64,000 nucleotides of DNA. It comes from Mobula hypostoma (lineage: Eukaryota). The first letter of the stretch is position 1. Each line of letters begins with the position of its first letter. The stretch spans positions 143,284,001 to 143,348,000 of the forward strand of contig NC_086097.1 in assembly GCF_963921235.1 (NCBI RefSeq), written 5' to 3'. The translations under genes were made by a program, and so were the position numbers. Below, in pieces: positions 19,396-63,600 of the stretch. The notes beneath the pieces are model-generated. The model had not been told where the DNA came from, ran no database searches, and worked only from the letters and a program-made list of their open reading frames with translations.

Positions 19396-19705
19396 CTGTC
19401 TGACCCACTGAGTTCCTCCAGCATTTCGTTTGTTGCTGCCGAATCCAGTATCTGCAATCTCTTGTGTCTCCAGTCATAATCACACTTCATAGCTGTGAAA
19501 ATGCTTAAAAGTTCTTGCACATCTAGGATTGTGTCAATTAACCAAAAGTATAAATTACCTGAATCTTCATCTCTCTCTCTGTCTCACCTGTTTTTCCATT
19601 GTACCGAGTGGGGTTACTGAACTGCACTGCATGCCAGTTGCAAATTAAGTGAGAATATTTTCCACCATAAATGCTAGAAAACAAATCAAGGACAGTCTAT
19701 ATGTT

Positions 19706-19938
19706 AGCAACATACATCAAAGTTGCTGGTGAACGCAGCAGGCCAAGCAGCATCTATAGGAAGAGGTGCAGTCGACGTTTCAGGCCGAGACCCTTCCTTC
19801 AGTTAGTCCTGACGAAGGGTCTCGGCCTGAAACGTCGACTGCACCTCTTCCTATAGATGCTGCTTGGCCTGCTGCGTTCACCAGCAACTTTGATGTATGT
19901 TGCTTGAATTTCCAGCATCTGCAGAATTCCTGTTGTTT
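19706..19938. mobile_element. PLE-derived fold-back mini-element with hammerhead motif and 14-bp TSD
   Basis: Arms 19706-19797 and ~19813-19905 are near-perfect reverse complements; TSD acagtctatatgtt at 19692-19705 and 19939-19952. Confidence 0.88.
19804..19841 (+). ncRNA. Minimal type-I hammerhead ribozyme motif
   Basis: Stem I agtc(19805-08)/gact(19837-40); CTGACGA 19809-15; stem II agggtctcggcct; GAAA 19829-32; C-GTC with predicted cleavage after 19836. Confidence 0.7.
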
Positions 19939-19970
19939 ACAGTCTATATGTTGCTTTTTTTTCTTTTCAG

Positions 19971-20294
19971 GTTTCAATCGTATGGAATGGGAACTTGATC
20001 AGCTTGCTACGGAGCCTCTTTTTCATCGGAATTGATGCTAAAAACCCAGTCCTTCGGTCTATTGAAAACGAGGTCCACTGGCGGCTGAGACGGCTAACTT
20101 TTAAACATCTCACTTCGCTTCTTGACTACTACACCAGTTTTGCACAGTCAGACCAACAGAAGGTGTTGCTGAGTGATATAATAAAACATGTGGAATTGAG
20201 GTGGGCAGAGATCACGGATGCAAAGACTGTGGCCTTGTTAATGACAAAGGTTGGACACCTGTCAGATACGCTAATGGACAAACTGGAGGATAAG
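19971..20294 (+). CDS. TBRG4: TBRG4 exon 3
   Basis: ttttcag|VSIVWNGNL...EVHWRLRRL..KVGHLSDTLMDKLEDK|gtatgc; 324 nt, phase 0-0. Confidence 0.95.
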
Positions 20295-20384
20295 GTATGC
20301 AAGACTCACTCAATGTATGTTATAATCAACATAGGAATAACTAGCATCCTTGTACAAGATTGACCTTGTTCTTTATTGTGCTGG

Positions 20385-20580
20385 CAGCATTGTCTCAGTG
20401 TTGACAAGTCCCACCCCAGAGATTTCAGTGCTTAATTCACTTCTACAATGCTGTGGAAACAGCACTGTTGAGGTTGCTGCTTTCAGAATGAATTATTCAA
20501 ACTTGCCCAGTCTGCTCTCTCTTCTGGATGTAAAGGATCCCCTGGCACCAAAGGAAGATGAAAAATGTAGTTGTCCCAGT
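20385..20580 (+). mobile_element. Deu-domain SINE relic (SacSINE/AmnSINE-like)
   Basis: cagcactgttgaggttgctgctttcagaatga...ggatgtaaaggatcccctggcac resembles the recalled Deu domain; a similar relic lies at ~60210-60420. Confidence 0.4.
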
Positions 20581-22237
20581 GTCATAGAGTCATATAGCAC
20601 AGAAACAGACCCTTAATCTCAACCAATCCATGCCGAACAGTGGCCATCTAAGCTAACCTCATTGACCCTTATTCCTCTAAACCTTTTCCATCCATGTGCC
20701 TGTCCACGTGCCTTTTAAATTTTGCCAATGTATCTTCTCAACCACTTCTAGCAGTTCATTTTATACAAGGATCACCCTCTGGGTTAAAAAAAAGTTGCCC
20801 CTCAGGTTCTTACTAAACCTTTGCCTCCTCACTTAAACTTATTCCCTCTAGTTCTTGATTCCCCAGCCTAGGGGAAGAAAAACTGCATTCACATCATCTA
20901 TGCTCCACATGATTTCGTACATCTCTAAAAGATCATCCCTAATTCTCCTATGCTCCAATGAATAAAATCCTAGCCTGCTCAACTCTTTTTCTATTACACA
21001 GTCCCTTGAGACCTGGCAAACATCCTTGTAAATCTTCTCTGCATTCTTCCCAGCTTAATGACACCATTCCTATAGCAGAGTGCTCAAAGCTGAAAACAAT
21101 ATTGCAAATGCAGCATACTCAGCATCCTGGCTGCTGAAGGCCAGCGAGCAAAAAGCCTTTTTCACCACACTCTCTACTTACGACCTCATTTTCAGGGAGC
21201 TATGTACTTCTTGATCCCCTTATTCTAAAAAATTCTCTAGGACCTTACTGATTACTGTGAAAGCCCTATCCTGATTTGTCTTTCTGAAATATAACACCTC
21301 ACCCTTAACTGAATTAAAAGTCCATTTTCCTTCATCTGCTCTTGATCCCACTATAATTCTTGATGACCATCTTCAGTGTATACAACACCTACTTTAGTGA
21401 CATCTGCAAATTTACTAAAAGTGTCTGTACATTGTCATCCAAATTATTGATATATATGAAAAATAGCGATCGGCCCACCACTGACCCATGGGAACACCAC
21501 TGGTCACTGACCTTCAGTCTGAAAAGCAACCTTTCACCATCACGCTCTGCTTCCTACCATAAAGCCAATTGTGCAGCCAATTAGCTCTCGCTGGATACCC
21601 TTTGATTTAACTTCCAGCAACAGTCTATCAAGCAGAAGCTTATTAAGGGCCTTACTGAAGTGTATATACAGTTGCAAGAAAAAGTTTATGAACCTTTGGC
21701 AATTACATAGTTTTCTGCATGAATTACTCAAAATGTGGTCTGATCTTCATGAAGTCAGTATAATAGACAGACACAATCTGCACACAAACAAGTGTACTAC
21801 TTCTCGTCGATACTGACTACACTATTTAAACAATCACAATCTAGGTTCAAAAAACTATGTGATCCTCTGGGATAATGCCTCTACAAAAACTACCTGGAGT
21901 CAGGTGTTCCAGTCAGTGAGCTGGGATTGGAAATGCCCTGCCCTGTAAAAAAAATCACACAAAGTCAAGTTACTGACAGAGCCTGCTCTTCTGAAGAAAG
22001 ATCTGTTTATGTGGACCACGCCTCAATCGAAACAACTTGTAGAGGACCTTAGAACAAGAATTAGATGCATGAAGCTGGAAAAGGCTACAAATATATTTCT
22101 AAAGATCATCAGTGTACAGTAAGCGAAATTGTCTCCAAATGGAGGAAATTCAGTTCTGTTGCTACTCTCCCTTCTGTTAAGATCACACCAAGAGTACGGT
22201 GTACAATGCTGAAGGAGCTGAAAAGAACCCAAAGGGT

Positions 22238-22970
22238 TATGGAGAACTTGGAGAGACAGGGCATGACAGGACAAAGTCAGCATGGTTTCCTTAAGGGAAA
22301 ATCTGGTTTGACGAACCTGTTGGAATTCTTTGAGGAGATTACACGTAGGATCGGTAAAGGGGATACAGTGGATATTGTATATTTGGACTTTCAGAAGGCC
22401 TTTGACAAGATGCCACGCATGAGGCTGCTTACCATGTTAAGAGCCCATTGTATTACAGGACAGTTACTGACATGGTTAGAACATTGGCTGATTGGTAAGA
22501 GGCAGCTAATGGGAATAAAAGGATCCTTTTTTGGTTGGCTGCCAGTGAGTAGTGGTGTTCCGCAGGGGTCGGTGTTGGGACTGCTTTTAATGCTGTATGT
22601 AAATGATTTAGATGATGGAATAGATGGCTTTGTTGCCAAGTTTTCAGATGATATGAAGATTGGTGGAGGGGCAGGCAGTGTTGAGGAAATAGGCAGGCTG
22701 CAGAAGGACTTAGACTGATTAGGAGAATGGGCAAGAAATATTGTGAGTGATGAATATGTGGAATTTGTTACTACAGGCAGCTGTGGAGGCCAGGTTGTTG
22801 GGTGTATTTAAGGCAGAGGTTCTTGATTGAACACTGCGTCAAAGGTTACGGGGAGAAGGTCAGGGAGTGAAGCTGAGGAGGGGAAAGAAGGATCAGCCAT
22901 GATTGAATGGTCGAGCAGACTCGCTGGGCCAAATAGCCTCATTCTGCTCCTATGTCTTATGGTCTTATGG
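22238..22970 (+). mobile_element. Internally deleted CR1 fragment inside Tc1
   Basis: QHGFLKGKS, LDFQKAFDK, GVPQGSVLG, then a jump to the 3' end with a (tatggtct) tail. Confidence 0.85.
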
Positions 22971-23569
22971 TGTAACAGCAAAAGACTTGCAGAAATCTCT
23001 AGAACTTTCTAAAATCTCTGTTCATGTGTCCACTATAAGAAAAACACTGAACAAGACTGGTGTTCATAGAAGCACACCACAGAAGAAACCACTGCACTTC
23101 AAAAAGAAAAAAGTTTCTGCACTTCTCAAGTTTGCAAAAAACCTCTTGGATGTTCCACAATGCTCTTGGGACAATATCCTATCGATAGATGAGAAAAAAG
23201 TTAAACTTTTTGGCAGAAGTGTACACCACTATGTTAGTGTGCAGTGCCCTGTTTCCTCCAAACGTCAAAACCTCATCCCAACTCTGAAGCATGGTGGAAG
23301 GAGCATCATGGTTTGGGGCTGCTTTGCTGCCTCAGGGCCTGGACAGCTTGCAATTGTTGAGGGAACAATAAATTCAAAATTGTATCAAGACATTTTACAG
23401 AAGACTGTCAAGTTAGTGGTCCATCACCTGCAGCTTAATAGGAGTTGTATGATGCAACAAGACAATGATCCGAAACACAAAAGTAAATCAACTGCAGAAT
23501 AGTTTAAAAAGAAGAAAATTTGTGTTTTGGAATGACAAGTCAGAGTCCAGACCTTAACCCAATTGAGAT

Positions 23570-26498
23570 CACAAACAAGAGAAAATCTGCAGATGCTGGA
23601 AATCCAAGCAGCACACTTAGTAGGAACTTAGTAGGCCAGGCAGATCTATGGAAAAGAGTACAGTTGACGTTCTAAGCTAAGACCCTTCAGTAGGACTGGA
23701 AAAAAAGATGGAGTCACAGTAAGAAAATTGGGAGGGAGGGAGGGGAGGAAGAGCCACAAGGTGATAAATGAAATGGGGGAGGGGGATGTTGAAGTAAAGA
23801 GTTGAGGTTGATTGGTAAAAGAGATACGGGCTGCAGAAGGGGATATCTGATAGGAGAGGACAGAAGGCCATGGAAGAAAGAAAAGGGGGAGTAGCACCAG
23901 AGGAAGGTGATAGGCAGGTAAGGAGATAAGGTGAGAGAAGGAAATGGGAATGGGGAATAGTGAAGGGTGGGGTAGGCATTACCAGAAGTTTGAGAGATTG
24001 ATGTTCATGCCATCAGGTTGGATGCTACCCAGGTGGAATTTAAGGTGTTGCTTCACCAACCTGAGTGTGGCCTCATCGCGACAGTCGAGGTGGACATGGA
24101 CTGAGATGTCCGAATGGGAAGCGGAATTACAATGGGTGACCACCGGGAGATCTTGCTTTTTCTGGCAGATGGAGCATAGGTGCTTGACGCAGCATTCTCC
24201 TAATCCGCAACACACACAAGATGCTGGTGGAACGCAGCAGGCCAGGCAGCATCTATAGGAAGAAGTATAGTTGATGTTTCGGGTCGAGAGCCTTCGTCAG
24301 GACTAATGGAAAAAAGTGATACTAAGAGATTTGAGAGGGGGAGACCTGAAATGATAGGAGAAGACAGGAAGGGGAGGGATGAAGCCAAGAGCTGGGAAGT
24401 TGATTGGCAAAAGGGATACAAGGCTGGAGAAGGGGGAATATCATTAGGATGGAAGGCCTTGGAAGAAAGAGAGGAGAAGAGGAGCACCAGAAGAAGATGG
24501 AGAACAGGCAAGGAGTTATTGTGAGAGGGAGAGAGAGGAAAAAAATAAAAATTAGGGATGGAGTAAGAAGGGGAGGTGGGGCATTAACGGAAGTGAGAGA
24601 TCAGTGTTCATGCCATCAGGTTGGAGGCTACCCAGACGGAATATAAGGTGTTGTTCCTCCAACCTGAGTGTGGCTTCATCTCGACAGTAGGGGAGGCCAT
24701 GGATTGACATATCGGAATGGGAATGGGACATGAGACTAATCCGCATTGGGTTTTACCAATACTCCTTACCAGGAGCACTGGATAGAGTAGGTCAGCGGTC
24801 CCCAACCACCGGGCTGCAAAGCATGCGCTACCGGGCCGCGAGGAAACGATATGATTTGGCGATATGAAAAATCTTTCCTCATTTTGGCACCTTTCCTCAT
24901 TCCCTGTCCGGCCACTGTTGAGCCATTACGCACGCGAGGTCATTACCCACGCGTCATCCATGTCAGCGCGGGAAGAGGATCAACTCCTCGAGCTTGCAAA
25001 TGAGGGGGGGCTGAAAAGTATGTTTGACATAACATCTCTGCTGGCATTCTGAATCAAAATCAAGACTAAATATCCTGAGATAGCCACGAAAGCACTGAAA
25101 ATGTTGCTTCCATTTCCAACATCATATCGCTGCGAAGTGAGTTTTCTGCAATGAAAGCAACGAAAACTAAATTGCGGAATAGACTGAACATAAGGAACCC
25201 CCTTCGAGTATCGCTGTCTCCCATCACCCCTCGATAGGACGGTGTTGTTGCAGGAAAACAAGCCCAGGGCTCCCACTGATTCAGCGATATTGGTGTGTTG
25301 CAATGATTTTATATGTTCATATGGGGAAAATATGTGCTGTGTGTTTAATATCCAAACGTTACTTAAAATGTTATGATGCTATTGACTTACTTATATAACC
25401 ATATAACAATTACAGCACGGAAACAGGCCAACTCTGCCCTTCTAGTCCGTGCCGAACGCTACTCTCACCTAGTCCCAGCAACCTGCACTCAGCCCATAAC
25501 CCTCCATTCCTCTCCTGTCCATATACCTATCCAATTTTTCTTTAAGTGATAATATCGAACCTGATTCTGCCACTTCTACTGGAAGTTCGTTCAACACTTA
25601 CTTCAAGCTCCCCTGTCCTCCCCTGATTATTGACTTATCGCTATATTCCTGCGAGGAAAATATGCGCTGTGTGTTTAATATTAAATTCATTAGATAAGCC
25701 CTTTTAGAAACAAAATTGTGTATTAGCCACTTATCACCTATATTCCGGTGGTGATTAACACCCCGCCCCCCCAACAGAATCGGCATAAACGATTTGTAGA
25801 AAAAAATCGGCAGGCACAAGCGCGCAGGTCACGCATGCACACTGGTGCCCGCGCAAGGCTTCATGGTCATTGTAGTCTTTCTTGGGTAAACACAACGTAT
25901 TTGACTGCTACTCTTGTCCGTTGGCAACCTCACCCCACCCCGCCGGGTCGGCCGGTCTGCAAGAATATTGTAAATATTAAACCGGTCCGCAGTACAAAAA
26001 AGGTTGGGGACCCCTGGAGTAGGTGACTCTAACAGACTTGTAGGTGAAGTGTAGCCTCAACTAGAAGGACTGATTGGGGCCCTGAATGGTATTGAGGGAG
26101 AAGTTGTAGGGCCAGGTGTAGCACTTGTTCCGCTTACAAGGATGTGAAGATGGGCCCTCACCCAATCCTCCCACCACCCACCAAGGATAGGGTTCCTGTT
26201 GTCCTCACCTACCACCCCACCAGCTTCTGCGTCCAGCATATAATTCTGCATAACTTCTGCCATCTCCAGCAGGATCCCACCACCAAACACATCTTTTCCT
26301 CTCCAGCCCGCGCTTTCTGCTTTCCGTAGGGGTCACTCCCTACCCAACTCCCTTGTCAGTTCGTTCCTCCCCACTGATCTCCCTCCTGGCACTTATCCTT
26401 TTTCCCAGTCCTGCTGAAGGGACTTGACCTGAAACATCAACAGTATTCTTTTCCATCGATGCTGTCTGGCTTCCTGAGTTCCTCCAGCATTTTATGCG
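23570..26498 (-). mobile_element. Penelope-like element (Neptune-type remnants) with inverted end, inserted in the Tc1 transposase
   Basis: 13-bp TSD acccaattgagat at 23557-23569 and 26499-26511; EQHLIFRLGSLQPDGMN (GIY-YIG C-terminus); inverted segment RVPVVLTYHP at 26144-26329; a second PLE copy is nested at ~24205-24730. Confidence 0.85.
24793..26016 (+). mobile_element. hAT-Charlie/Buster-type non-autonomous DNA transposon
   Basis: TIRs cagcggtccccaacc / ggttggggacccctg; 8-bp TSD gagtaggt at 24785-24792 and 26017-26024; hAT C-terminal remnant YPEIATKALKMLLPFPTSY..KLRNRL..QAQGSH; contains a CR1-type tail at ~25393-25595 with TSD acttactt. Confidence 0.9.
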
Positions 26499-26914
26499 AC
26501 CCAATTGAGATGCTGTGGCATGACCTGAAGATGCTGTTCATGCAAGGTATCCCAGAAATATCGATGAACTAAGATAGTTTTTTATGGAGGAATGGTCTAA
26601 ACTTCCTCTTCGCCATTGTGCAAATCTGATCAGCAGCCACAGTAAACGCTTGGTGGAGGTTATTGCTGTTAAAGGATGTTCTACCAGTTACTAAATACAA
26701 GGGTTCACATAGTTTTTCCAGCCTGAACTATGAGCAATAAAACAATGTGTTCAATAAAGACATGAAAAGTACAATTATTTGTGTGTTATTGATTTAAACT
26801 GATTGTGTTTGTCTATTATTGTGACTTAGACGAAGATCAGACCATATTTTATGAGTAATTAATGCAGAAAGACAGGTAATTGTAATGGGTTCACCAACCT
26901 TTCCTTGCAACTAT

Positions 26915-27758
26915 TGTGACGAGAATACACATAAAATTAAGATGTTTGCTGGCCTGGGTTAGCATCAGTGACATCAGCAAGTGGTCTGCCACCTGCCCTC
27001 AGGGGAAGGAGAGATAAGGAACAATGGAGCAGCGTCTGGAGATGTGTAATGAAGGGACGTGGGAGAGAGAGAGCTGTCTGGAGCGGCTCCCCCTTTGAAC
27101 CCTGAACTGTTTGAAGTGATGGACAGGCGATACCCCAGCAGGGGGATAAAAAGGGACCGGTTCGCTAAGGCAGGGACACACGCCACCCGAGGTAACGAGA
27201 CCCTGGAAGCGGTGCGCCTCTCACGAGTGGGTGAGAAGTACCAGACAACGCCCGGGGTGGAAAGGTACGATCAGCGGGAACCTGGTGTGTGTCCGCCCTT
27301 GCCTGGGTGCCGGGTTCACTGCAGAGGATCGACCGCATCTGGAGGAGGGGTCACAGTCGGTGACCTCCGGTGACATCACCAAGGACCCGCCCAAAAGTTG
27401 CTTGTGAGCAATCTCGCCGGTCTGTGAGTGAAGCCGTTCTGAATGATCAGTTGTTCCTGTTCTATCTCTCTCTTCCCCCACGTTGTCCATCGCCATGGCA
27501 ACGATTACTGCGAACTGAACTTTGAGTCACTTTGAAATTTGGTCATTTACCCCTAGACAACGATAGAGCTTGATTGATGCTGTTATCTTAATTCTGTGCA
27601 CATGTGTGTTTATCATCGCTGAACTGTTGCATTTATTATCCTTTCGATTACTGTGTTGCTTGTTCCTTTAATAAAACTTTCTTAGTTCTAGTACTCCAGA
27701 CTCCAACTGAGTGATCCATTTCTGCTGGTTTGGCAACCCAGTTACGGGGTACGTAACA
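26915..27758 (+). mobile_element. Solo LTR (844 bp)
   Basis: TGTGACG...CGTAACA ends; 4-bp TSD ctat at 26911-26914 and 27759-27762; TATA-like gataaaagg at ~27145; AATAAA at ~27670; CpG-rich. Confidence 0.85.
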
Positions 27759-28119
27759 CTATATACCACATCTACCACCCTGCCATATCAACCTTCTTGC
27801 TTGCTTCTTGAAAGAACTCATGAGATACGATCTCCCACACACAAAGACTGTCCCAATGCTTGGACCAGCTAAAGAAGCTAATCTGGACTTTATTTTAGTG
27901 TTATTTGTAGGCCATCGCTTAATACCAGTTAATCACCTTATTTACTTGATTCCAACTGAAAACACTTGTCTTCGTAAAAGCAGACTTCATTTTTAAATCT
28001 CTGGAGTATTATGAGATTGTGAAAGGTGCTATTTAATTATAAATTTTTTCATGTTTTAGTCTTCTGAGTCTACATGGAATATGCATTCTCACTGTGTATT
28101 TGTCAACTTCATGTTTCAG

Positions 28120-28291
28120 AGCTTGGAACTGGCTGAACATTTCACTCCTGATGACACAAGAAAAGTGATGCTGGCCTTGGCATTTCAAAATCGGCGCTCT
28201 GTTCCTTTGCTACGTGCCCTGTCATACCACTTCATGCAAAAGTACTTTGATCTCAAGACTGAGTTACTGATTGACATGGCTTTTGCTTATG
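28120..28291 (+). CDS. TBRG4: TBRG4 exon 4
   Basis: ttcag|[29 protein letters not shown]|gtaagt; 172 nt. Confidence 0.95.
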
Positions 28292-28602
28292 GTAAGTGCA
28301 AATTCAATGACAGTGCAGCATATAAACTTAACCAAATGCAAGTGAAATGTCTGTGTGGGTCTCTGCAATCTGTGTTTAGCTCTGATTACTAGGTAACCAA
28401 GTTTGTAAGCCTAGCACCAGATTCGTGAACAGACATTCCACTCAAACTCAATTTTGAGAAGAGGAGGGGGAAGGATTCATCCCATAATACCATGTCATGT
28501 TGCAACATTTAAAAAATAAAGTATCTGCTTTTCAGAAACAAAGTAGTTTAATAAAAATAATAGCTGCTGAAAGTTTAATACTGGCTTCTTATAATCCCAC
28601 AG

Positions 28603-28760
28603 GAAAGCTGAATTTCCAACAGACACAGGTTTTCCAGCGGCTGGCCTCTGAACTTCTCCCCAGGGTACCGGAGTTGAGTCCCCTTGATATCATGCGATGC
28701 ACAAAGTCATTTGCTTACCTGAAGTGGCTCAATCTACCTTTGTTTGAAGCTCTAGCACAG
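28603..28760 (+). CDS. TBRG4: TBRG4 exon 5
   Basis: cacag|[33 protein letters not shown]|gt; 158 nt. Confidence 0.95.
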
Positions 28761-29269
28761 GTGAAGTTGCAATCATTAACATTGACATTGGAGCTAGTTT
28801 GATCATTTCCATTTTCCTATTTTGCCTTGATCTTCTGTTCACTTAAAAGACTTGGTTGGGTCTGCCTAACATTTAGCAGCTAATAATGTGTTACATATTA
28901 CCTTGTATAATACTGTTCAGTGTCTTGCTATGACCAGTAAACTTTTGTGATTTTAATTTATGTATGTAATTCGATGGAGAGCATTCATGCCCTTTCCAGG
29001 TACCATAATAAAATTATTGATTTTTGATGCTTATGATATCAATTCATATTTTCCAAAATTAAACTGAGAAAGTAAAATGTAAATTGACTCTCTTGAAGAC
29101 AATGTGCTTCATAATCCTGTCTACAGATTCCTGGTTTCTCTTTTAGAACATAAAATAGTTTAGTTTAGAAACAAGCCCCTCAGCCCACGATGTCTGTTAT
29201 GAACATGATGTCAAATTAAACTCAACCTCTTCTGCCTACGCATGATCCGTACCTCTCCAGTCTCTTCAT

Positions 29270-29945
29270 ATGAATCACAATACAGGAAGGAGATAGAAAA
29301 CCTTGTCACATGGTGTCATGACATCACATTTTCTCGCAGTGTCAGATAAATAAAAATGAGGTCATTGACTTCAGCAAGACGCACCAGTGCACATGGTCCT
29401 GTCATCATCAATGGTGCTGAGGTTGAGACGTTGAGAGTTTCAAGTAACTAAGAGTGAACAACACGATTAGACTTGAGCTGGTCAACTAAGTTGAGGTCAC
29501 TGCTAAGGAGACTTGCTGGTACCTCGACTCAGTCCATAGAAAGCATCTTATCCAGATGTACGTCAGCTTGGTATAACAAATTCTCTGTCCATGACCTCGA
29601 GAACATGCAGAGAGTTATGGACACAGCTCAGCACATCATGAAAATCAGCCTTCCCTCCTTGGAATGTGTTTTCTTGCTGACTTGTTAAGCCAGCCAGAAT
29701 AATCAAAAATCCTACCCACCCCAGAAATTCTCTTTGCTCCCCTCTCCGATTGAGCAGAAGATACAAAAGATTGAAAGTGCATACCATCAATCTCAAGGAC
29801 AGCTGCACCACTGTTATATGATTAGTGAATGGTTCTTTAGTATAATGAGATGGACTCTTGACCACACAATCTACCTCGTTGTGACCTTGCACCTTACTGT
29901 CTGCATATATTGCACTTTCTCTGTACTGTAACACTAATCTGCACT
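29270..29945 (+). mobile_element. Rex1/Babar LINE relic
   Basis: IESILSRCTSAWY..QRVMDTAQHI motif. Confidence 0.7.
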
Positions 29946-30597
29946 CTTATTTTTTTTATCTGGCCTCACCTCAGCTTCTTGACACTCCAGAGAAAACAGT
30001 TGGCTTTTCCAAGTTTGTCCGATCTCTCCTTATAGCTTAAACCCTCTTATCCAGCCAACGTGCATGTAAACTTCTGTACCCTTCCCAGAATCTGTAAGTT
30101 CAGCTTAATCAAAACTTAGCAACATGACTTACTGACTGTAGCACTCAATGCCCTGACCAATGAAGGCAAACATGTCATACATCTTGTTTACCTCTCTATT
30201 GACTGTTTTACTTGATATAAGCTCAGAATGTCATATAGTCCATCTTGATTGGTAAATTATAAAATTTGTACACGAATGGTATATGCAAAGAAAAGGCAGT
30301 TAGAGGTTGGTATCTAATTGAGAAATACAACTTTATGTATACAATAGTGGATCTCTGGGAGGGAATACTCATTTATTTGGGAGCTTTGATCAAATTCAGA
30401 TGGTTTATGAACAGAGTATTATACCTGAAAGTGAGTTATGGGCATGGTGTATATGTAGAAAATTAAGTATTTAAGAAGATTAAGGAGAGTACCTAATACC
30501 ATTCTAGAGACTGTAAGTTTGTTCATTTCTGTGTTTTTTGACTTTGGAACTTTGGAAAAGGTGCAGATAAATTAATGTATTGCATTATCGTATTTAG

Positions 30598-30708
30598 TAT
30601 GTATACGAGCACTGTGACGCGATGACTGAAGTGCAGCTCTGTAACATCATCATGGCCTTCGCTCGTCTTAATTATCAACCAGCCACTGGAGAGACCTTCT
30701 TTGCTAAG
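30598..30708 (+). CDS. TBRG4: TBRG4 exon 6
   Basis: tttag|YVYEHCDAMTEVQLCNIIMAFARLNYQPATGETFFAK|gt; 111 nt (not in the ORF track). Confidence 0.92.
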
Positions 30709-31980
30709 GTGGGGATGGTGATCTTTGAGAGGGAATATATTATCTTTATGACAGCTGTATCACAATGGTAGCTTGCTTTATTCAGAGTTAGAAAGTGGTG
30801 ATTGGTAATATAGTGGAATGTAAATGTAAAGTGTGGAAGGTGCGCTTGCATAAAATTGTTCTTGTTCTCAGCTGTGATGGCTGTATTTAGTCTCTTCGAA
30901 AAAAATTCAGCATTTCAGGACTTATAATCCAGTGATAGGAGTGTGGGTGGTGGAGGAATGCTGAATTTCTTTTACCCTTTGTGTTAAAATAACTGCTTCG
31001 TAATCAAGTTCTGAATTTAATTTACTGTATGTCCCTGTGTTTATAATTCCCTCACCAGAAAAAATAGTCCCCTATTAAAAGATTCCACTACTTTGATGAA
31101 TGTTTCCTCCATATCTTCCAAGGCCAATCTATCCACATTGCTCTGAGCAACTGAAGTACTGTCTTAATTGCTGCTCTTGACTTTTGTATTTGTAACTTTA
31201 AAATAATTTTTGCAGCTTGATACCTAATTTAGTTATAACTTATTTGCTGGATATAGGCATTATAAGAAGACAAACACTTATTGTCCATGCATAATTACTT
31301 TTGATAAGGTGGTGGTGAATGACATTCTTGAACTATTGCAATCTTGGTGAAGCTATCCCCGTAGTCTTGTTGAGTAGGGAGTTCCAGGATTTAAAACCAG
31401 CAAAGATGAAGGAATAGTTATGAATTTCTGGGTCAAAATGGTGGGTGACTTGGAAATGTTGGTGTTCCTTTACTATTCCCAGCCCCTCACTATTTAGTCT
31501 TCAATATTTCTTTGATCCAAAGCAGATCTCTTTACTCTTGGTTTCCCTGGCTATGTGGAACAAAATTGGCTCTTGTTTGCTCTATACCCTGTCTGTTATC
31601 AGTAGGGCCAGAATATAGCTAAATTGATCACTATTATGGTTTAATATCACCATAAGAAACATGAGAAATAAAAGCAGGAGTAGACCATTTGTCCTTTTGT
31701 GCTTGCCCTGCCATTCCATCAGGTAATGTCTAATCTTTTACCTCAGCTGCATTTGTCTGCACTAAGCCCACATTCATTAATAGTCTCATTTCTAAAGAAA
31801 CATGCGGATTGGTTCACTGTATCGATGGCTATTGGCACCCAGGAGAATGTGAAGTGTATTGTAATTTTGTTAATATTCTTTTAAATTTTTTTATGAAATA
31901 GCATTACATTAGAAGCAGTTGGCAGGACCAGTGGAAAACAGGATACTTTCAATAAGATCTAATTTTATTTTTGTCTGTAG

Positions 31981-32125
31981 ATTCACAGTAAACTTAACAG
32001 TGTCCTGTTGGAGATGGATCCATTCCTGCTGGTTGATTTGGTATGGTCACTTTGTATATTACAACAGGTTAATCCTGTTTACCTCCGTCATGTACTTCAA
32101 CCACATTTCTACCAAAGAGTTACAG
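31981..32125 (+). CDS. TBRG4: TBRG4 exon 7
   Basis: tgtag|IHSKLNSVLLEMDPFLLVDLVWSLCILQQ..QRVT|gtgagt; 145 nt. Confidence 0.93.
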
Positions 32126-32474
32126 GTGAGTCTTGTACTTCAGTGGTTTGTTTAAAATTCTTGTTGAATATGGAATCTTGAAGGCCCAAGTTCAGAACTT
32201 GTGTTCGGATAATGTACATTTGAATGTCTTATGCATTTATAGACAACAGAAAAATGAATGAAAAGGCTGGAATTTGTCATTGAATTGCTGCTTATTAATC
32301 AGTGTATTTAGGGTTAGGTTCTTGCCGTCCTCACCTAATCTATATTGCGTATAACCCTAATTGTAGGATAATTGTGGAAAAACAGATTAATTGTTTATCA
32401 TTGTTGTAGGCACTTGAAGTACGTATATACAAGATGTCACTGGGTTATGAGCGCCTGACGTATGGACACCCATA

Positions 32475-33507
32475 CAGTGTCCTGAAAAGTATTCAGCCCC
32501 CAACGCTTTGTTCACATAAATGAGAATTACAACAGGGATTTTGATCAATTTAACTGAGAATTTTTATTTGTGAATCACATGCTCCTTTTTTCCCCAGCAC
32601 AGCTCCAAAAATGGAGAATTGTAACGCATGAAAAACTAAAAATTCAAAACCTGAAATGTCAGCAGTTCAGAGGAATTCATCCCCCTTTCCTCAGTACTTC
32701 GCTCCCACAGCTATCACAACCAGTAGTCTTTTTGGATAAGTTTATTAGCATTGCATAAAGTAATGGAGCATGGTTTTCCCATTCCTCCTTCCAAAATTGC
32801 TCAAGTTACGTAAGATTAGTTTGGGAGCAACAGCGGACAGCAATCTTGAGGTCTTGTTAGAGATGTTCAGTCATGTTAAGGTCAGGACACTGACTTGGGT
32901 CACTCAAGGTTATCAATTTTTTTTTCATTTGAAACCACTCCATGGTTGCTCTGGCAGTGTGCTTTGAGTTGTTTTTCCTGCTAAAAGACCGACTTCCCAG
33001 TTTAAGCTTTCTGGCGGAGGCTAGCAGGTCTTTATCCAGGATCTCTCTATATTTAGCAGTAATCATCTTCCTATCAATCCTGATCCGGCTTCTGAAAAGT
33101 GTTTCCATAGCATGATGCTACCTCCACCATACTATGGTGTTAACTGGTTGATGCACAGTATTAGAATTGCACCACATGTACCAGTAAAAAAAGCATATCT
33201 TTGCCCATAAAGACTTTGCAAAGCTTTGCTCAGAAGATACTGTAAGGATATGGAAGAAAGTTTTGTGGTGGGATGAAACTAAAGTGGAACAACTTAGCCT
33301 CAATACAAAGTGTACATGTGACTTAAATCTAATACTGCACATCAACCAGGTAACACCATTCCTAATGTTTTTGGGGACTCTACTGTGGGGGGAAATAAGA
33401 GCATGTGATTCAAAAAAAAAATCAGTTAAATTGATCAAAATCCCTTGGTTGTTATACTCATTTATGTGAACAAAGGATTGGGGGCTGAATACTTCTTCAA
33501 GGCATTG
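32475..33507. mobile_element. Deleted and rearranged Tc1 transposon
   Basis: Long TIRs cagtgtcctgaaaagtattcagccccc..ttgttcacataaatgag / ctcatttatgtgaacaaag..gggggctgaatactt..cattg; minus-strand NNSKHTA..SQCPDLN; plus-strand WKKVLWWDETKVE. Confidence 0.85.
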
Positions 33508-34494
33508 TCAGTAAAAATGAATTCTCATAATATTACTCAGTTACAAAGTCTTTTGAATGACTTTAGAACTGAATAATACCCATCACCCACCCTCTTCCTC
33601 TCCCCCATCTTCCTGCTCTCCTCCCCATTTAGTAATTGTTTGTTAATGTAACAACCCATTGTAGTTCATTTGATGTAAAACACTTCATCAAATATGTGAA
33701 AAGTGGCAAATGGATGTTACAGAATTTAAACCATCAGTTAAATTGGCTAAGCAAAATGTGTAACCATTAATAGATTTTTACAATCGTAACAGTAATTCTC
33801 CTATTCCAAGAAAATAAAAGGTTGTTTCTCCCTTTTGCTAAAAATAAATTGAGTCTGTTCTCGGCAGGCTCCTAGTGCCAGCCAGGTGTGTTTAAATTAC
33901 CAAAGGTACCTTCAGATGGGGCATTAAATCATTCAGTAAGTGATTCATAGCCGCCTTTGCAAGAGAAAGAGCTTTCTTGGTGTCTAGAGTAATATTGTTC
34001 CTGCAGCTATCAGAAATGAAACTCAGGGCATCCCTCAGGTGAGTTGGAGGGGCTCAGTGGGGCAAGCAGCACCTATGGAGGATGAGGGACAGGTGATTTT
34101 TCAGGTCAGGACTCTCTTCCCTCCATAGATGCCACCTGACCTGCTGAGTTCCTCCATCTCCACCTCCCTTGTCTGTTGCTCCAGACTTAGAGTATCTGCA
34201 GTCTTTTGTGACAACATAAAATTGTTATCTTTGTCACGTTGCCTACCAGAAACACAATGCCAGGCTAATCTCTGAGTGAACTATTATAGTAACTTAATCA
34301 CAAGCTGGAGAAAAATCTGCAGATGCTGGAAATTCAAGTATCACAAACACAATGCTCCAGCATTTTGTGTGTGTTACAATAGTAATTTGTTACGTGCATC
34401 ATCTGTGGGTTGCAATCATATCTTAGAGGAACAGTTTCCAGTCGGATTGCAACCTGTTGACTTGCTAATTTGTTTGTATTTCTGTTGGTACCAG

Positions 34495-34743
34495 AAGGGA
34501 CCCAGCCACAGAAAGGGGAGAACTATAAACTGAAGTTGGTACATATCAATGCCACAGCTCAGCTTGAATGTTCTGACTATAGTGGTCCCTTTTTGCCAAG
34601 TCAGTGCCTGGATGTCTGGATCTCAGGAGCCAGGAAGAAGCCAAGTCCACTAAGTAGTGGTGTATGTGAAGCTTTGCAGTCTGCCTTTGGAGACCAGACC
34701 AAATATCGCTGTGGTGTCAACACATTGTATGGTTGGGTTATTG
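34495..34743 (+). CDS. TBRG4: TBRG4 exon 8 (alternative start 34498, NAGNAG)
   Basis: KLVHINATAQLECSDYSGPFLP...VNTLYGWVI|gtgagt; phase 1-1. Confidence 0.92.
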
Positions 34744-36165
34744 GTGAGTTGTAAAATTGGTTTTCCTTTTACTCTCTTCCCCCTTCCCCACCATGCACAT
34801 AATTTTAACCCCTTGTGCTGACCTTTGGAAAGAGAAACACAGTTAACATTTCAGATCGAAGACCCTTCATCTATTTAAACTCATGTTTAGACTGACATTG
34901 TAATGCAGGATCAAGGGATGTATTAGAGGCTGTTAAATCAAAGCCTTATTCCCAGTTCAGGTGGCTAGGAATAGAGAGGCTTCAATTTAAGATCAGCATC
35001 ACAACAATAAGGGGAGAGGTCTGGAGCAATTTGGTATAGGATGCTTGTTTGGGATCTTAAAAGAGATATCTTAAATATCTGGAATGAGGAAGTAAAAATA
35101 AATGGAGGATAGAACAAAATGGATTACTTTTGAGAGACTTAGCAACTGAATTGTTTTTTTAGTTGTTAAGACAGGTGCAAACACTTAAAGAAATCCCTAG
35201 GCAATATTCAGTTGTGAGTCAGTTGTTCTGATAAATTGCTGCACCCCTTTTCTCAACTAATATTTACTTGACCATTGCAGTTTGTGAAACTTTGCTGCTA
35301 CAGAAAAGTTAAATGGTTTGTTTTGCATGACAATCATCACTATGCTTTTTACATCTTTCAACGTAGTAACATCCTATTTAAACATAGGCAACCTATACAT
35401 AACAGGGTCTTCCATCCCTTAAAAAAAAAAGCTGCTTTGTGATTTTCTGAAATGTGAGACCCCTTTTCTCATGGAACTCTGGTTCATAATGCATTCCTAT
35501 GAGACGTTTGCCTCTCATTAAACCATTTTTCAGTGATAATTAAGTGACTCACCTTATTTAACAACTGAGCCAACACTCGTGGCTTGTGAAGTAGGAAAAG
35601 ATTTAGCAAATGAGGATATCAGGATGTAATTTGAAGATCAGGGTCCATGGGAGAAAGGGGGCATAAAAGGAGTTCTAGGGGCTAATAGGTTAAAGTACGG
35701 TGACTTAGCTTTAAGTGTAGTATAGGCTGAGGGATTACTTTGGACAGCCATGGGTCTTGGCTGTCCACAATGTAATCAGAGAAATTGCTTCACAAATGAA
35801 GAGTGCAGCACACTGTTCATGTGTCCTCAGACTGGAGAGAGTGTGGCAAAGGAGGGGGTTTCACTGAGACTGTGAACCCAATTGATGCAATGATGTCATC
35901 TTCAAATCTTCGAACCCAGAGTCTTGAGGGAATAAAAATACAAAGTGACAGCATTTGTTGTTTCTTTTGTATTTTGTGTTTACTTTTTCCGACATAAATT
36001 TTGTAAGACTGAATTTTATTCTGTATCTCAAATTTTTTGGATAGAGATTTGTGAGTTTTTAAGGACAAATTTCCATAATCTCAACAGTTGTAATGCAATG
36101 GTCACCCATATTTTCTTTCACATAGTGACTAAGTATAGCTGCTAGAGACACCCGTTGATCAAATA

Positions 36166-37449
36166 CAGGTTTCCCCCGCTGTCCGAAGGTGGAGCGTTCC
36201 TATGAAATGGTTCGTAAGCCGGAATGTCGTAAAGCGAAGAAACAATTACCATTTATTAATATGGGAAAAATTTGAGCATTCCCAGACTCAAAAAAAACCT
36301 ACAAAATCATGCCAAATAACACATAAAACCCAAAATAACAGTAACATATAGTAAAAGCAGGAACGGTATGATAAATACACAGCCTATATAAAGTAGAAAT
36401 ACTTTTCTGCAGCACTGTCTAGTGCAGCGCAAATCTCACGGCAGCACTCTCGGCGGAAGCGCTCTCAGCAGAAACACGGCGCAAGCGCTCTCGGCAGATA
36501 CACTCTCTCCAGTAACCTTTAAGCTACAAAGCTGCCAAATCATACCAAATAACACATAAAAATACACAGCCTATATAAAGTAGAAATAATGTATGTACAG
36601 TGTAGTTTCACTTACCGGAATCGGGAAGACTCCAATAAATTGCAGTTTCGTCACAGTTAAACACTTGCTTATACGAATAACCATCTTCTGTAATTATTTT
36701 CTTCAGTTCTGCTGGGAACTTTTCGGCAGCTTCAGTATCAACCAAAGCACTCTCTCTGGTAAACGTTAAACTATGAAGCTGCCCTCGCCTCAGAAACCCA
36801 TCAAACCACCCATGACTACCTTTAAATTCCACTTTTGCAACATTTTCATCGCCATCGTCCAATGCTTTCTGTTTCAGCTTATTAAAAAGGCTGACTGATT
36901 TCTCCTTAAGTAGAAGAAAACTTAACGGAACACCACTTGTACACCCATCAATTCACTCAAGCAATAGACTTTCCATTTTATCCATTATTGGATGCCAACT
37001 AAGAGAGAGACCACTTTGCTACGAGCAGAACCAACAGTTACATCGACAGCTTTCAAAATTCTTTCTCTCTGCATATAAATAGTGCGAATGGTGGACGCAG
37101 GCAAGTTCAACGCGTGAACAGTGACCTTACTTTGTTCACCACAATCGAAACGCTTAATTATGTCTAGTTTTACGCTAAGCGTAACACCCTTACGAGCTCT
37201 TTTAGGCTTTTCCAATACGTTAGAACTCATCTTGCTAACGGATGCACAAAATAAATCGAGATAAAGCACGTGTTTAAGCAATGGCGGCTAGAGTGCGGTT
37301 CCGGGGGAGGAGCTTGGCTGTTTGGGTGCGCACTGCCTTTTTTCGTAACAGTGAAAACACCTTCTGTTAGCAAAAACAGGTAACTAATGAAGGTCTTTCG
37401 TAACAGCGAGGTGACGTAAAGCGAACGTTCGGAAAATGGGGGCCACCTG
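36166..37449 (-). mobile_element. Tigger/pogo DNA transposon, internally deleted
   Basis: TA TSDs; TIRs caggtttcccccgctgtccgaa / ttcggaaaatgggggccacctg; CENP-B-like HTH (RKGVTLSVKLDIIKR), FKGSHGWF and VFNCDETAIYW motifs. Confidence 0.9.
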
Positions 37450-37661
37450 TACACAATGTCAGATTTCACATTTGATTTTAGGCTTGTTTTCTTTTTGGCA
37501 TCTTTTCTTTAGTAGTATGAAAGGTGTTGACATGACAGGAAACTCCCTTGCCTGTAATTCGAAGTAGGGTTTTACCAGCAGAATGCCATCTTGCTGTGGT
37601 TCCATGTCACCTTGATTGAAATACTATTACTACTAAAAGGTTATGGTTTCTTTGTCCGCAG

Positions 37662-37773: not shown

Positions 37774-37843
37774 GTAAAGAGTGAGCATACACTGATACAG
37801 TAAATAGCTGCATGTCACTTGGAATTTAGTGTTCCCCAAAATG

Positions 37844-50569: not shown

Positions 50570-50780
50570 AGCAACACACATCAAAGTTGCTGGTGAAGGC
50601 AGCAGGCCAGGCAGCGCCTATAGGAAGAGGTACAGTCGACGTTTCGGGCCGAGACGAAGGGTCTGGGCCTGAAACGTCGACTGTACCTCCTCCTAGAGAT
50701 GCTGCCTGGCCTGCTGCCTTCACCAGCAACTTTGATGTGTGTTGCTTGAATTTCTAGCATCTGCAGATTTCCTCGTGTTT
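50570..50780. mobile_element. PLE fold-back mini-element
   Basis: Same ends as 19706-19938; inverted arms; imperfect TSD gaatttt(c)ttat at ~50558 and 50781. Confidence 0.82.
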
Positions 50781-58442: not shown

Positions 58443-58606
58443 GCAACACACATAAAAGTTGCTGGTGAACGCAGCAGGCCAGGCAGCATCTCTAGGAAGA
58501 GGTGCAGTCGACGTTTCAGGCCGAGACCCTGCCTGGCCTGCTGCGTTCACCAGCAACTTTTATGTGTGTTGCTTGAATTTCCAGCATCTGCAGAATTCCT
58601 GTTGTT
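58443..58606. mobile_element. PLE fold-back mini-element, internally deleted
   Basis: 14-bp TSD agcatttgaagaaa at 58429-58442 and 58607-58620; same ends as 19706-19938. Confidence 0.85.
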
Positions 58607-59434: not shown

Positions 59435-59504
59435 ATGCCTGGGGATGCAACGAAAGATGCAGCAAATGTACATCAGGAGTTCCAACCCAAGCAAAGGAGC
59501 CCAG
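59435..59504 (+). CDS. NACAD: First coding exon of a NAC-alpha domain-containing gene (probable NACAD)
   Basis: aacaATG MPGDATKDAANVHQEFQPKQRSP+G|gtgagt (70 nt, phase 1). MPG(E/D)A start is shared by NACA/NACAD; human NACAD lies directly downstream of TBRG4 on the same strand (recalled). Confidence 0.75.
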
Positions 59505-60445
59505 GTGAGTCAGTGGGGTGAATCGGTGGAGGGGGTGAGGATTTGATCTGGTTTAATATATATAAGAAAGTCTAAGAGGATTGCTGTTTAACAATCTTAA
59601 CGTTGCACCCCTGCCTTCTGATGTAGAAATGCAGATTTTTTTTTGAACAGGGCACTGTGTGACAGACATTTTATAAAAGGGGAGGGTAAAAACATGAATC
59701 TGTCATCATTCATTAAAGTCTGCTTTTAATGGTTTTGAAATCACTATTAAAACACCAATAACAAATAAAACTGTGAACTGCAGAGCCTTTCTTCAATTGG
59801 GTTTAATCATTTATCATTAATATTAAAAATAAATCTCTGCCAGCTTCCATGATTATACATAGAACAGTTTCAGTTTGTGGGTTCTGGTATAAGGTTGCTA
59901 GGTGGTGGTGTCAGATTATATAACACTTATGAGCTTTGTAAATACACACTCAGGGATGCCTATTTTAAAATACAGTGCACATACTGAAGCCCAGTAGAAA
60001 CGAAGGCCAAATACTGTTTACGGAGCTTAGGTGAAATGAAATTCTAGTTTGACGCAGCTGGCAGAAATCTGAGCGAAATGAATGATAAAACAAAGCGAGG
60101 ATGATCACAAACGTCTTTGAATATACAAGGCTGTAATCAAATTGAAACCCAAACAACTCAGCCCACAGCCAACAGACTAAGGTTTAAAGATGCCTTCCCA
60201 TGTCGTTTCATCCTGGCTTGGTGGTAATGTTCAAATCTCAGGGCTCACCAGGCCGGGATGAATCATGTGAATCGAGCACTCAATCTAGGCCGACATTTCC
60301 AATGTCATGCGGAGGGAGTGCTACACTTTTGGACTTGCAAGCTTCAGATAAGGACAAAGTGCAGGGATTGATCTGATCTCTGAGGAAGATCATGTAAAAT
60401 ATCCTGCAACAATCAGTGGGACAAAACAGGAGAACAGATTCTCAG

Positions 60446-60611
60446 CAACACACATCAAAGTTGCTGGTGAACGCAGCAGGCCAGGCAGCATCTCTAGGAA
60501 GAGGTACAGTCGACATATCAGGCCGAGACCCTTCGTCAGGACTAACTGAAGGAAGAGGCTGGTAAGAGATTTGCAAGTGGGAGGGGGAGGGGGAGAATTC
60601 CTCGTGTTTAC
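60446..60611. mobile_element. PLE mini-element (one arm plus terminal tail)
   Basis: 14-bp TSD gaacagattctcag at 60432-60445 and 60612-60625; antisense hammerhead copy with GAAA mutated. Confidence 0.82.
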
Positions 60612-63600
60612 GAACAGATTCTCAGTCCCATTCTGTCTCTCACATAACCACTGAAGGAGATTTGCACTTTGATGTTTTATGAAGTTTACTGGCTGCCATA
60701 TTTCCCACGCTACAATAGAGGCTGCAATTTTAAAATTCCTTTACTGGCTCTAAACAGTTTCAGATAAGTAAAAGAGCAATAGTTTATAAGTATGTTTGCT
60801 TCAGAGTTTATCTGATAGGTAACCATTGGCATGGATGCGCAAGAGCTTGGCCTGTGGTGTTAAGAAGCCTGAGGGAGTGCTGCCTTCAAAAAAAGCCACG
60901 TCAACACCAATCCATTCAATTTAGATGAATGTAAAAGTGTTTGCAGATCTATTCAAACACTTATTACTCCAACAATGTCACTGTAAATATGGAAAGGATA
61001 ATTGATCCTTCATTAGAAAACAATAGAATGCTCCTGTAGCTCTCCTCTTGAACAGAAAAATATCTCATGGAGATGAACAAAACCAGGGAGCAGCCATTTT
61101 TGGCCACTACTGACGTAAAATATCTACCATGTTTCCTTCTACTGTGATGTTATTGTGTTCACTGTCTGCAAAACTCTAAATTCAAAAGAAGATTTTAAGC
61201 TCTATCTGATACAGGTATCCAGGGGTACCCTCACTATAGGGAAATTGTACTGTATCCACCTACTATTTAAGGACTTGCTTATTTCCCTGTTCCGTCTCTC
61301 TGGCAAGATCTAGCTGTCAATACACACTGCTTGGTGCTGGGCTACCCCTTCCTACCAAGGAGGGGATACTTCCAGTTAATGAAGTAGTTTTAACACAGTT
61401 TATTTTATTCTTAATGATACACATTTAAATTTAGATAAATAGTTCTCAACAAACATTTAAAACTCACAGGGGATTTCTGATTTATAAAACATTTCTGAAC
61501 TACAAAAGATCTGTAAACTATGTCCAAATGATTTCCAAGGTACAGATTTTACAAACTAAAAGAATGTACCAATGAGTACAGATGAAGGAGTCATCCAATG
61601 CAGACTGAGGAATGAATTTTAGTTCTTCTGTCACTCTATCTTTCTGTCATTCTCTTGTCGTTCCTAACAATCCCCAATGCTTTCTAATATTTATACTGTT
61701 TTGCTACTAGTTGACATTATTTGCATATGATGTTTCTCAGATATGTTTGCTGGGATAAAGTAATTCACATGGATGGTCTAAAAGATTCTGGGGATAGAGA
61801 TCCAAGACACCCAAATTCAATGCCATGGTGGCTGGCTCTCTGAATATACAAATATCCCAACTATTAATAGATGAGCTACAGTATGTCTGTGCCTATGCTT
61901 GATGTGCTAAGTGACATAATCCTATTGTCCTGCATTTTGCTAATGCAGACAAGCCGCCTCGTGGTCACTTCACATATCCCTTGAGCAGCCAGTCAGCTGC
62001 TGTGGGCCAGCAGCCTGTGCTGTGTGAACAACACTGTTTGCAAGGCTGCGCTTTTAACTTCAAAACTAATTGATGCTTGCAATTTACATTAAGAACCGAA
62101 GACTGGTTCTTGTTTACAACAAGAAGCTGAGCAAGGGATATTAGTTAGAAGTCTGATCTTGTCACCAACAGATATGACCCTATGGAAATGTCATACTGCT
62201 GTACTAAAAAGCTAAGGTTAGCACAAGGCTCTCAGGCCCTGGAAGGCAAATACCTGTTGTACTGTAGTCACTGCACAAGCAGATGGCAGAAAGAGCCCAG
62301 AAATAAAGAAATGTATCTTCTTCATAGGACGTCCCTCAGGGCATTGGAAAACTTGGTTTTATTATAGCTCTGTGGGTTGTGAAGAGGATAAAGAGACCCG
62401 TGTAGGACTTGGCCGCAAGTGGGGTAGTTAATACTTGGTTAGTTAGCTTGGGACATTGTGTGCATCTTTTACCACTTGCACAAAACCTCCACATTCTCCT
62501 GTGGAAGAGACTGAAGACAGCCAGTGCCTTTCTAACTGGTTATGAGCCAGGGATTTCCACCAGTTCATGAGAGTCTTCCATTTCTACAAGGAGGCTTTGA
62601 AAATGTCCTTGAAGTATTTTCTCTGACCTCTAGGAAATGGCTTGTCATGTTTGGAGCCAAGAGGAGAGTGCTTAGTTTTGGAATTCTGTCTGCATGCCAA
62701 ACACCAGTAATGGCCTGCACTGAAGCTGGCTGAGTGTCATCAGAACCTCGAGGCTGAGGATATTTACCTCAGAGGACACAGACTGCCGCGGTCAGCCTTT
62801 ACTGGCAGTGGAGTTGGAGGAGCTTGTGGAAATTGCGGTGATTGCTTTTCTTCAGTCATCCTCGCAGGAGACAGAAGTGCGATGGTATTCAGGCAGCCAG
62901 AGGCTGTGTTGGAGATCTGGAGATGGGTGGTGCATTACATCATGAATGTCTGCCTTCATTGAAGGGTGGCTCCTGTGATATGGGAAGTTTTCCAGTGAGT
63001 CTCCATGGATCTTGTTACTTAAGAAGTGGGTTCTCCTGTAGTTGGAGACTAGTAGAGGACAATGCCTTCCAGATACTTGGTGTAATCCTTAGTGCTTCAG
63101 TGCTAGAGTTCGGTGTGACTTGGAACAGCGGTTGTCCACATTCAGTGAATCACTGATTGAAATTGTATCTGCAGTGTTTATGAATATTCTTGGCACAAAA
63201 TGGCTGCTAGTTTCCTACTGGGCATGTGTTCACGACATTAAGAATAATTTTTAAGAAATTTATGAATGAGTAGCTAAGCTGGTGGGTTGCAGCTCAGAAT
63301 ATAAAACATTGCTAGAGCTTGGAAAGTTTGTAGGAAAGATTCATTTGGAACAGAGAACAGTTAGAGAGCATATAGTTCAGAATTTAGAAGTCTGTTGATA
63401 GTAGAGTGGTAATACTGAGTGGAATAAGAGATTTTATGGTTATAAAATGCTAGAGTAGTATGTTGGATTTTAAGTGAAATAATTAGTTTTATTTTCAATT
63501 GCAAGAACGTAGTGAGAAGGATGTGAATATATGATGTACATGGAGGAGCACATAACATTAAAGAATGAAGTCTGCTCACTGACTGCGGTTTCTCCAGGTG

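Follow-up and report, generated by a model that had tools for sequence, protein, structure and literature searches.

Four short insertions, A to D, in a 64,000-nt stretch of the genome of the ray Mobula hypostoma (the window; contig NC_086097.1, positions 143,284,001 to 143,348,000) are very likely truncated products of a Penelope-like element (PLE) and not members of an amplifying family. Probably they are separate, dead-on-arrival, 5′-truncated integrations by an endonuclease-bearing PLE of Neptune type, the integration route described below included. An initial annotation of the window had offered two readings: a ribozyme-bearing hairpin element, or an integration product of stereotyped form, made when the second target strand acts as primer at a fixed site. 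The second is supported. Two reverse transcription start sites are known for another PLE (PMC11167929; cited papers are represented here and below by passages of their text), and the fixed ends of the ray inserts are explained because they match these two sites. We favour twin priming as the route, with somewhat more reserve.

Insertions A–D are real insertions and lie where the initial annotation had placed them (Table 1). The three exact 14-bp direct repeats it reported are those of A, C and D; in a control scan none of 400 random position pairs gave a repeat of at least 11 bp, the maximum being 10. The duplication at B is degenerate (7 bases exact, about 11–12 allowing one indel). No common nick motif was seen by eye in five duplications. 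The target duplication is demonstrated by an empty site for A alone and by flanking repeats for the other inserts. Contigs of four runs (X1, X5, X15 and X20) were compared with positions 19400–20250; run X1 may be the window's own source and so is not independent. In an X5 contig, position 19691 is joined directly to 19939, a gap of 247 nt that equals the 233-nt insert plus one 14-bp copy, with four other differing letters in about 600. Runs X15 and X20 also lack the insertion, with small length differences beside the site. The check for empty sites in relatives that had been proposed thus gave absence in three of three other organisms, with an exact 14-bp duplication relative to X5. Insertion A is a young insertion with a 14-bp duplication.

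The PLE family is clearly very abundant. In X1, depth is 3.3–11.6 million on the arms of A and 20–27 on its flanks, an arm depth about 10^5 times the flank depth in contigs, which is not a copy number. Contigs ending at 19938, the outer end of a 34-nt tail, number 509, 450, 111 and 320 in the four runs, and their flanks are dissimilar and AT-rich. A–D belong to a young subfamily, marked by an indel of its own, that is almost missing from X15. The fixed ends claimed initially hold for the tailed end, where contigs pile up in all four runs. They hold less strictly for the tail-less end: the left ends of A–D differ by 2–3 nt, two left-end bases of C and D being assignable to target or element, and ten scored tail-less ends spread over about 11 nt once older copies are included, the four young ones lying within 3 nt.

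A profile of the repeat end gave 30 matches in the window and none in the reversed window. Nine two-armed inserts were scored (A, B, C, D and those starting at 7125, 23570, 8777, 34035 and 34299), and in all nine the 34-nt tail is on one arm, the other arm being about 34 nt shorter at that end. All four short inserts had been described as fold-backs. A–C do have a two-armed hairpin layout, with 91 nt without a difference between the arms of A, but D consists of a 154-nt inverted arm and 16 nt of tail and is not a hairpin (DNA fold −14.8 kcal/mol, against −130.7 for A).

The junctions between arms bear on whether these inserts amplify as a unit. The four junctions of A–D all differ, with overlaps of 4, 3, 2 and 4 nt (among random joins, 14.6% overlap by at least 2 nt and 1.5% by at least 4 nt). 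The initial annotation had named unique junctions in every copy as the finding that would speak against an amplifying hairpin, and by that test the hairpin fails in the window. Such a non-autonomous element, resembling either a miniature inverted-repeat transposable element (MITE) or a retrozyme, is very unlikely to be the source of the inserts. MITE-like shared internal structure is absent, with four differing junctions and lengths of 164–233 nt, and terminal inverted repeats are not at both ends: at one end the final 34 nt lie outside the repeat, and D lacks matching arms. Head-to-tail tandem monomers with a hammerhead, as in retrozymes, are not among the 30 profile matches in the window, and 224 X1 contigs extend upstream of A's arm into a longer 3′ untranslated region (UTR). 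The separate subfamily of A–D, nearly missing from X15, does speak for an amplifying unit. So does its indel, which disrupts a frame open from an ATG after the ribozyme in the 7125 copy; the source may therefore be non-coding there, although that frame start is putative (no match among 164 proteins). Among 15 of 620 contig joints listed, two lie inside A, with depths of 105.7 and 273.5 in X1. None is dominant among those listed, the best (273.5, joining 19773 to 19811) comparing with millions on the arms; its four ambiguous letters form an inverted repeat within the ribozyme fold. This joint reaches about 13 times the flank depth in X1 and is at 0 in the other three runs. One joint in X1 goes back from 19841 to 19805, a possible hint that the ribozyme unit is duplicated in tandem, retrozyme-like, at another place in the genome.

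The link to a PLE comes from the longer relatives and not from A–D themselves. The 3′ UTR in the arm of D is common to the 7125 and 24207 copies and leads into endonuclease remnants with 60–87% identity to P0001, a 422-aa ray protein with a YIDD motif and a Cx4CxxC linker. P0001 has 750 relatives at E up to 1e-30. The linker motif Cx2-5CxxC is present in P0001, P0002 and 26 of 32 long homologs, and in decayed form at window positions 26153–26019. Together with an endonuclease CCHH motif this linker marks Neptune elements, is common to Nematis and is absent in Penelope and Poseidon (PMC8557442). Filed by its linker motif, the source element would be an endonuclease-bearing Neptune-type PLE. A 73-aa endonuclease fragment from the window gave no Pfam match when searched alone, and a first homolog search with an older window fragment gave no match.

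The integration route that we favour runs as follows. The GIY-YIG endonuclease would nick both strands of an AT-rich target about 10–14 nt apart, a stagger suggested by the duplications. Reverse transcription would be primed by one 3′ end at the outer limit of the 34-nt tail and by the other 3′ end at a second start site 34 nt upstream; the two fixed ends are seen in the copies, and their use as priming sites is taken from in vitro experiments with a Poseidon element. The two cDNAs would stop early and be joined at the 2–4 nt of microhomology seen at the junctions, and gap repair would leave an inverted arm, a direct arm and the tail between target duplications. The duplications of 10–14 bp vary in length, as target-primed insertion would predict. 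The arms share variants (four positions in A, one in C and one private to B), and two of the A alleles and the C allele are minor in X1 (about 12%, 28% and 18%). The two arms would therefore derive from the same or sister transcripts, or else have been converted. Finally, the arms in this window suggest that synthesis may stop more often when copying the 5′ half of the hammerhead, and the candidate causes are that the RNA has its 5′ end or a branch close to the core, that a protein holds the fold, or that the ends are trimmed later.

What separates this route from self-priming is the relative length of the two arms. Were priming to occur once, at the tail, the cDNA could fold back and prime itself, the endonuclease resolving the hairpin at the tail boundary and later deletion in the middle of the palindrome producing the asymmetry. 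Self-priming has been suggested in print (PMC3846280), as has endonuclease resolution of the tail (PMC8557442). This model accounts for the shared variants and, in A, B, 7125 and 34299, for arm ends that nearly coincide; microhomology at the junction is as compatible with deletion as with joining. However, four of the nine two-armed inserts (C, D, 8777 and 34035) have a tail-less arm that extends upstream beyond the end of the tailed one, by 44 nt in C and 172 nt in D, and there a self-folding cDNA is insufficient without such a deletion. Insertion D keeps just 16 nt of its tailed arm, and its 14-bp duplication is intact. Moreover, the nested 24207 copy has a duplication and the tail-less end by itself: it ends at the second site and has no tailed arm. 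This end is a reverse transcription start site in vitro (PMC11167929). We consider self-priming unlikely as the general explanation.

Besides the X1 joint at about 13 times flank depth, several points weigh against separate integration by twin priming. Some copies with identical junctions may exist in the organism of run X1; some joints in X1 were not counted, and A's own junction cannot appear as a joint. A genome-wide pile at the second, tail-less end is not among the 24 entries listed (there are 1509 others), and the position of that end therefore rests on the copies in the window. The supporting in vitro data come from another PLE clade, and for that Poseidon element a strand difference in start site was not found (PMC11167929), which leaves the one-tailed pairing in nine of nine inserts unexplained. 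In A, B, 7125 and 34299 no more than about 30 nt separates the arm ends, which self-priming would also give, and the arms of B differ at six positions, two of them polymorphic in the family. P0001 matches the GIY-YIG domain at E 4.6e-4 with 20.9 bits, below the Pfam curated cut-off of 22.6, and the window holds no full-length PLE copy.

Positions 19804–19841 fit the published description of a minimal hammerhead (PMC4209133) and constitute a predicted type I ribozyme. Helix I is formed by 19804–19808 and 19837–19841, followed by the core (19809–19815), an extra A (19816), helix II (19817–19828) and GAAA (19829–19832), with the predicted cut after 19836. Across copies 85% of cells pair, against 15–41% in slid registers; covariation is not above that in shuffles (425 of 500 reach it). 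A search of Rfam at E up to 1 returned 17 matches, all below the gathering score and none a hammerhead; these sub-threshold matches are to microRNA and snoRNA. Pattern scans of metagenome and viral contigs gave no matches. A looser pattern gave 27 metagenome loci, in which the profile matches only the pattern itself plus several neighbouring positions (best 14.2 bits), and these were taken as chance. Downstream of the ribozyme, at 19842–19860, most subfamilies carry a pyrimidine tract followed by AG and ATG, an arrangement like that of a splice acceptor preceding a start codon. In the 7125 copy the frame that follows stays open across the tail; in A and B it is shifted.

The initial annotation had placed the turn-around points of several copies at or beside the hammerhead. 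We scored 23 arms, comprising 21 of the 30 profile matches and two arms too short for the profile, leaving out nine old or weak matches; stops are given in coordinates of A's right arm. For long or old copies the upstream ends are approximate and were set manually, and the one arm with a jump to the reading frame was scored as a stop. The ribozyme is reached by 17 arms, of which nine stop in 19793–19819, in its 5′ half, 17–44 nt upstream of the predicted cut. This corresponds to 2.88 stops per 100 nt at risk, against 0.26–0.47 in zones outside the ribozyme, and none of 300 constant-rate simulations was as extreme. In a cruder scan p ranged from 0.005 to 0.19 according to the mean length that was assumed; with A–D left out, 4 of 11 arms stop in the interval (p 0.02–0.06 for the fixed interval, 0.37–0.96 for the scan). 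The evidence for clustering in the hammerhead 5′ half is suggestive only, because the interval was chosen after all arms of this one window had been seen. Piles of loose ends at 19805–19807 in all four runs were left out as support since older subfamilies diverge from A there and their sequence is visible in the consensus.

What link there is between turn-around points and hammerhead is a clustering, and it does not lie at the predicted cleavage site itself. If hammerhead cleavage made the ends, an RNA 5′ end at the cut would limit the cDNA. The best-supported listed joint inside A does permit a left arm ending at the predicted cut, but its inverted repeat supplies microhomology that would favour the joint by itself. 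None of the 17 ribozyme-reaching arms stops in 19820–19841, the interval that contains the cut, on which ground we reject cleavage-site truncation for the window. In published work, cleavage was unneeded and RNA reads ending at the cut were not found (PMC11167929). Cleavage-made ends are highly improbable. A hairpin in the nascent cDNA that releases the primer has little support as the cause of stopping (cDNA fold −2.8 kcal/mol, RNA −12.2, z −0.61). Speculatively, the stop may arise because the RNA has its 5′ end or a branch point at the core, which lies upstream of the pyrimidine tract and the AG at 19855–19856; A's tailed arm runs past that point.

It is conceivable, though we hold it tentatively, that the copies record a PLE integration intermediate: two primers on one RNA 34 nt apart, a stagger of 10–14 nt, and a specific stop in the hammerhead 5′ half that lies away from the cleavage site (RNA 5′ end, branch or protein-bound fold). 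If so, the PLE hammerhead would have a role other than cutting, and the origin of inverted pseudo-long terminal repeats (pLTRs) and tails would become testable by counting copies in one genome.

Longer and older copies complete the inventory (Table 1). The exact duplications claimed for two longer relatives, 11 bp at 7125–7901 and 13 bp at 23570–26498, are present; the flanks of the former may also be read as 14 bp with one mismatch. The latter is a composite: an old fold-back PLE that also holds a younger PLE copy, nested in the endonuclease coding remnant of the older one, and an unrelated terminal inverted repeat (TIR) element that we take to be hAT-like. In the composite, at 26019–26498, the tail-less arm extends beyond the ribozyme, then skips to the reading frame near P0001 residues 231–234 and goes on upstream; the jump lies at about the residue at which the tailed arm ends. 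It looks like two primers sharing one RNA, or deletion in one arm of a long palindrome. The fold-back copy at 8777–8967 is absent from the list of the initial annotation. For the copies at 34035–34213 and 4366–4494, a search of the flanks found no duplication. An old, divergent fold-back pair at 4629–4843, left out of scoring, has both arms starting at the ribozyme 5′ edge around a 41-nt spacer; no flanking duplication was found for it.

Table 1. Positions in the window of the insertions, their parts and other features
Feature	Coordinates	Strand	Structure	Duplication and remarks
Insertion A	19706..19938		Inverted arm 19706–19796 (minus); direct arm 19793/19797–19938 (plus)	4-nt junction microhomology
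Insertion A, left 14-bp target duplication	19692..19705	+		Right copy 19939–19952; one copy in run X5 empty site
34-nt tail	19905..19938	+	One arm only	Loose-end pile at 19938 in 4/4 runs
Predicted minimal type I hammerhead motif	19804..19841	+		Read from sequence against the description in PMC4209133
Insertion B	50570..50780		Inverted arm 86 nt, direct arm 128 nt	3-nt microhomology; degenerate duplication 50558–50568/50781–50792
Insertion C	58443..58606		Inverted arm about 89 nt, direct arm 78 nt	2-nt microhomology; 14-bp duplication 58429–58442/58607–58620
Insertion D	60446..60611		Inverted arm about 154 nt into 3′ UTR, tail 16 nt	4-nt microhomology; 14-bp duplication 60432–60445/60612–60625
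Longer fold-back insertion, sister subfamily	7125..7901		Arms 7126–7486, 7492–7901	Duplication 7114–7124/7902–7912, 11 bp exact
Old fold-back PLE insertion	23570..26498		Tail at left; endonuclease and linker remnants	Duplication 23557–23569/26499–26511, 13 bp exact; two later insertions inside
Younger single-armed PLE copy	24207..24736	−	Without tail	10-bp repeat 24200–24209/24736–24745, 3 nt overlapping element end
TIR element unrelated to PLE	24793..26016		About 1.2 kb	8-bp duplication 24785–24792/26017–26024
Older short fold-back copy	8777..8967		Inverted arm ends at ribozyme stop position of A–C	8-bp exact repeat 8765–8772/8968–8975
Older short fold-back copy	34035..34213 (ends approximate)		Inverted arm ends at ribozyme stop position of A–C
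Very short fold-back copy	34299..34377		Tail at left; both arms end far short of ribozyme	10-bp repeat, one mismatch, 34286–34295/34379–34388
Older single arm without tail	1346..1900	−	Extends into endonuclease C-terminus
Older single arm with tail	4366..4494	−	Truncated at helix I 5′ edge
Host gene FASTKD4 (coding exons)	14642..42018	+		Protein comparison

The window is 41% GC with no N and contains many LINE (long interspersed nuclear element) remnants, several of them CR1/L2-like; an open frame at 22903–23502 is presumably a remnant of a Tc1-type transposase. An exon of the host gene FASTKD4 is 100% identical over 110 aa to a Mobula birostris protein. Insertion A and the composite lie in FASTKD4 introns, and B, C and D lie downstream of the gene. 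Insertion A stands 17 nt upstream of the acceptor AG of a FASTKD4 exon (19969–19970), in the expected branch-point region, and is missing from this site (19692–19971) in three related organisms.

As a family description these inserts have minor value, since an inverted copy and a tail are already known from PLE inserts. Their value is as data: abundant arms, clean 14-bp duplications and empty sites in close relatives. The ray genome could yield the distribution of staggers, separate twin priming from self-priming and test the ribozyme region as a cDNA end. For annotation there is a risk that such hairpins are mistaken for MITEs or microRNA precursors. In LINE-1 twin priming both target strands prime, giving an inverted 5′ segment, junction microhomology and a target duplication, and the two segments are copies of neighbouring parts of a single RNA, made from its poly(A) end. 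In the ray inserts, by contrast, both arms begin at fixed internal sites separated by 34 nt, and one stretch is copied twice.

The suggestion in the initial annotation of an under-described system was overstated. The layout, tail, ribozyme, short truncated copies and opposite-strand ribozyme pairs are already published, including the inverted copy, the tail and duplications of 8–10 bp (PMC3846280, PMC8557442), and the ends are explained (PMC11167929). A literature search, which left Repbase, Dfam and most subscription papers outside its range, found no account of the stop cluster, PLE twin priming or the ray family. How PLE inverted repeats and tails form is still called an unsettled matter (PMC8557442, PMC11167929).

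Insertion units of endonuclease-bearing PLEs consist of a pLTR, an adjacent inverted 5′-truncated copy and a one-sided tail of 30–40 bp (PMC3846280, PMC8557442, PMC2377424). The ray inserts are like them in the inverted truncated copy, one-sided 34-nt tail, target duplication, microhomology joins and variable arm length; they differ in being very short on both arms, in their duplications of 10–14 bp, against 8–10 bp in Adineta (PMC3846280), and in their batoid host. The passages of these three papers do not mention clustered stops at a ribozyme. A Chlamydomonas PLE also leaves short truncated copies (median 128 bp).

Metazoan PLE hammerheads occur as opposite-strand motif pairs 100–700 bp apart, with many single motifs from truncated PLEs (PMC4209133). 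The ray motif shares their short helix I, unpaired base after A9, G10.1–C11.1 pair and palindromic helix III. Its helix II is 3 bp as drawn, whereas that of Schistosoma hammerheads is 7–8 bp; elasmobranchs are not mentioned in the passages of that paper. Non-LTR retrozymes are likewise short, non-coding, hammerhead-bearing and derived from PLE pLTRs, and occur in a chondrichthyan, but they form head-to-tail tandem repeats whereas the ray copies are inverted pairs or single arms (bioRxiv 10.64898/2026.07.22.740005).

A mechanistic parallel is the Poseidon element of Anolis, for which both strands were nicked and extended in vitro from two reverse transcription start sites that bound the tail (PMC11167929). 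Stagger length, fold-back junctions and one-tail pairing are not addressed in the passages of that work. Poseidon lacks the Cx2-5CxxC linker and belongs to another clade than the ray element. Both have two fixed ends bounding the tail, AT-rich targets and a hammerhead upstream of the start sites, which in Anolis is unneeded for insertion.

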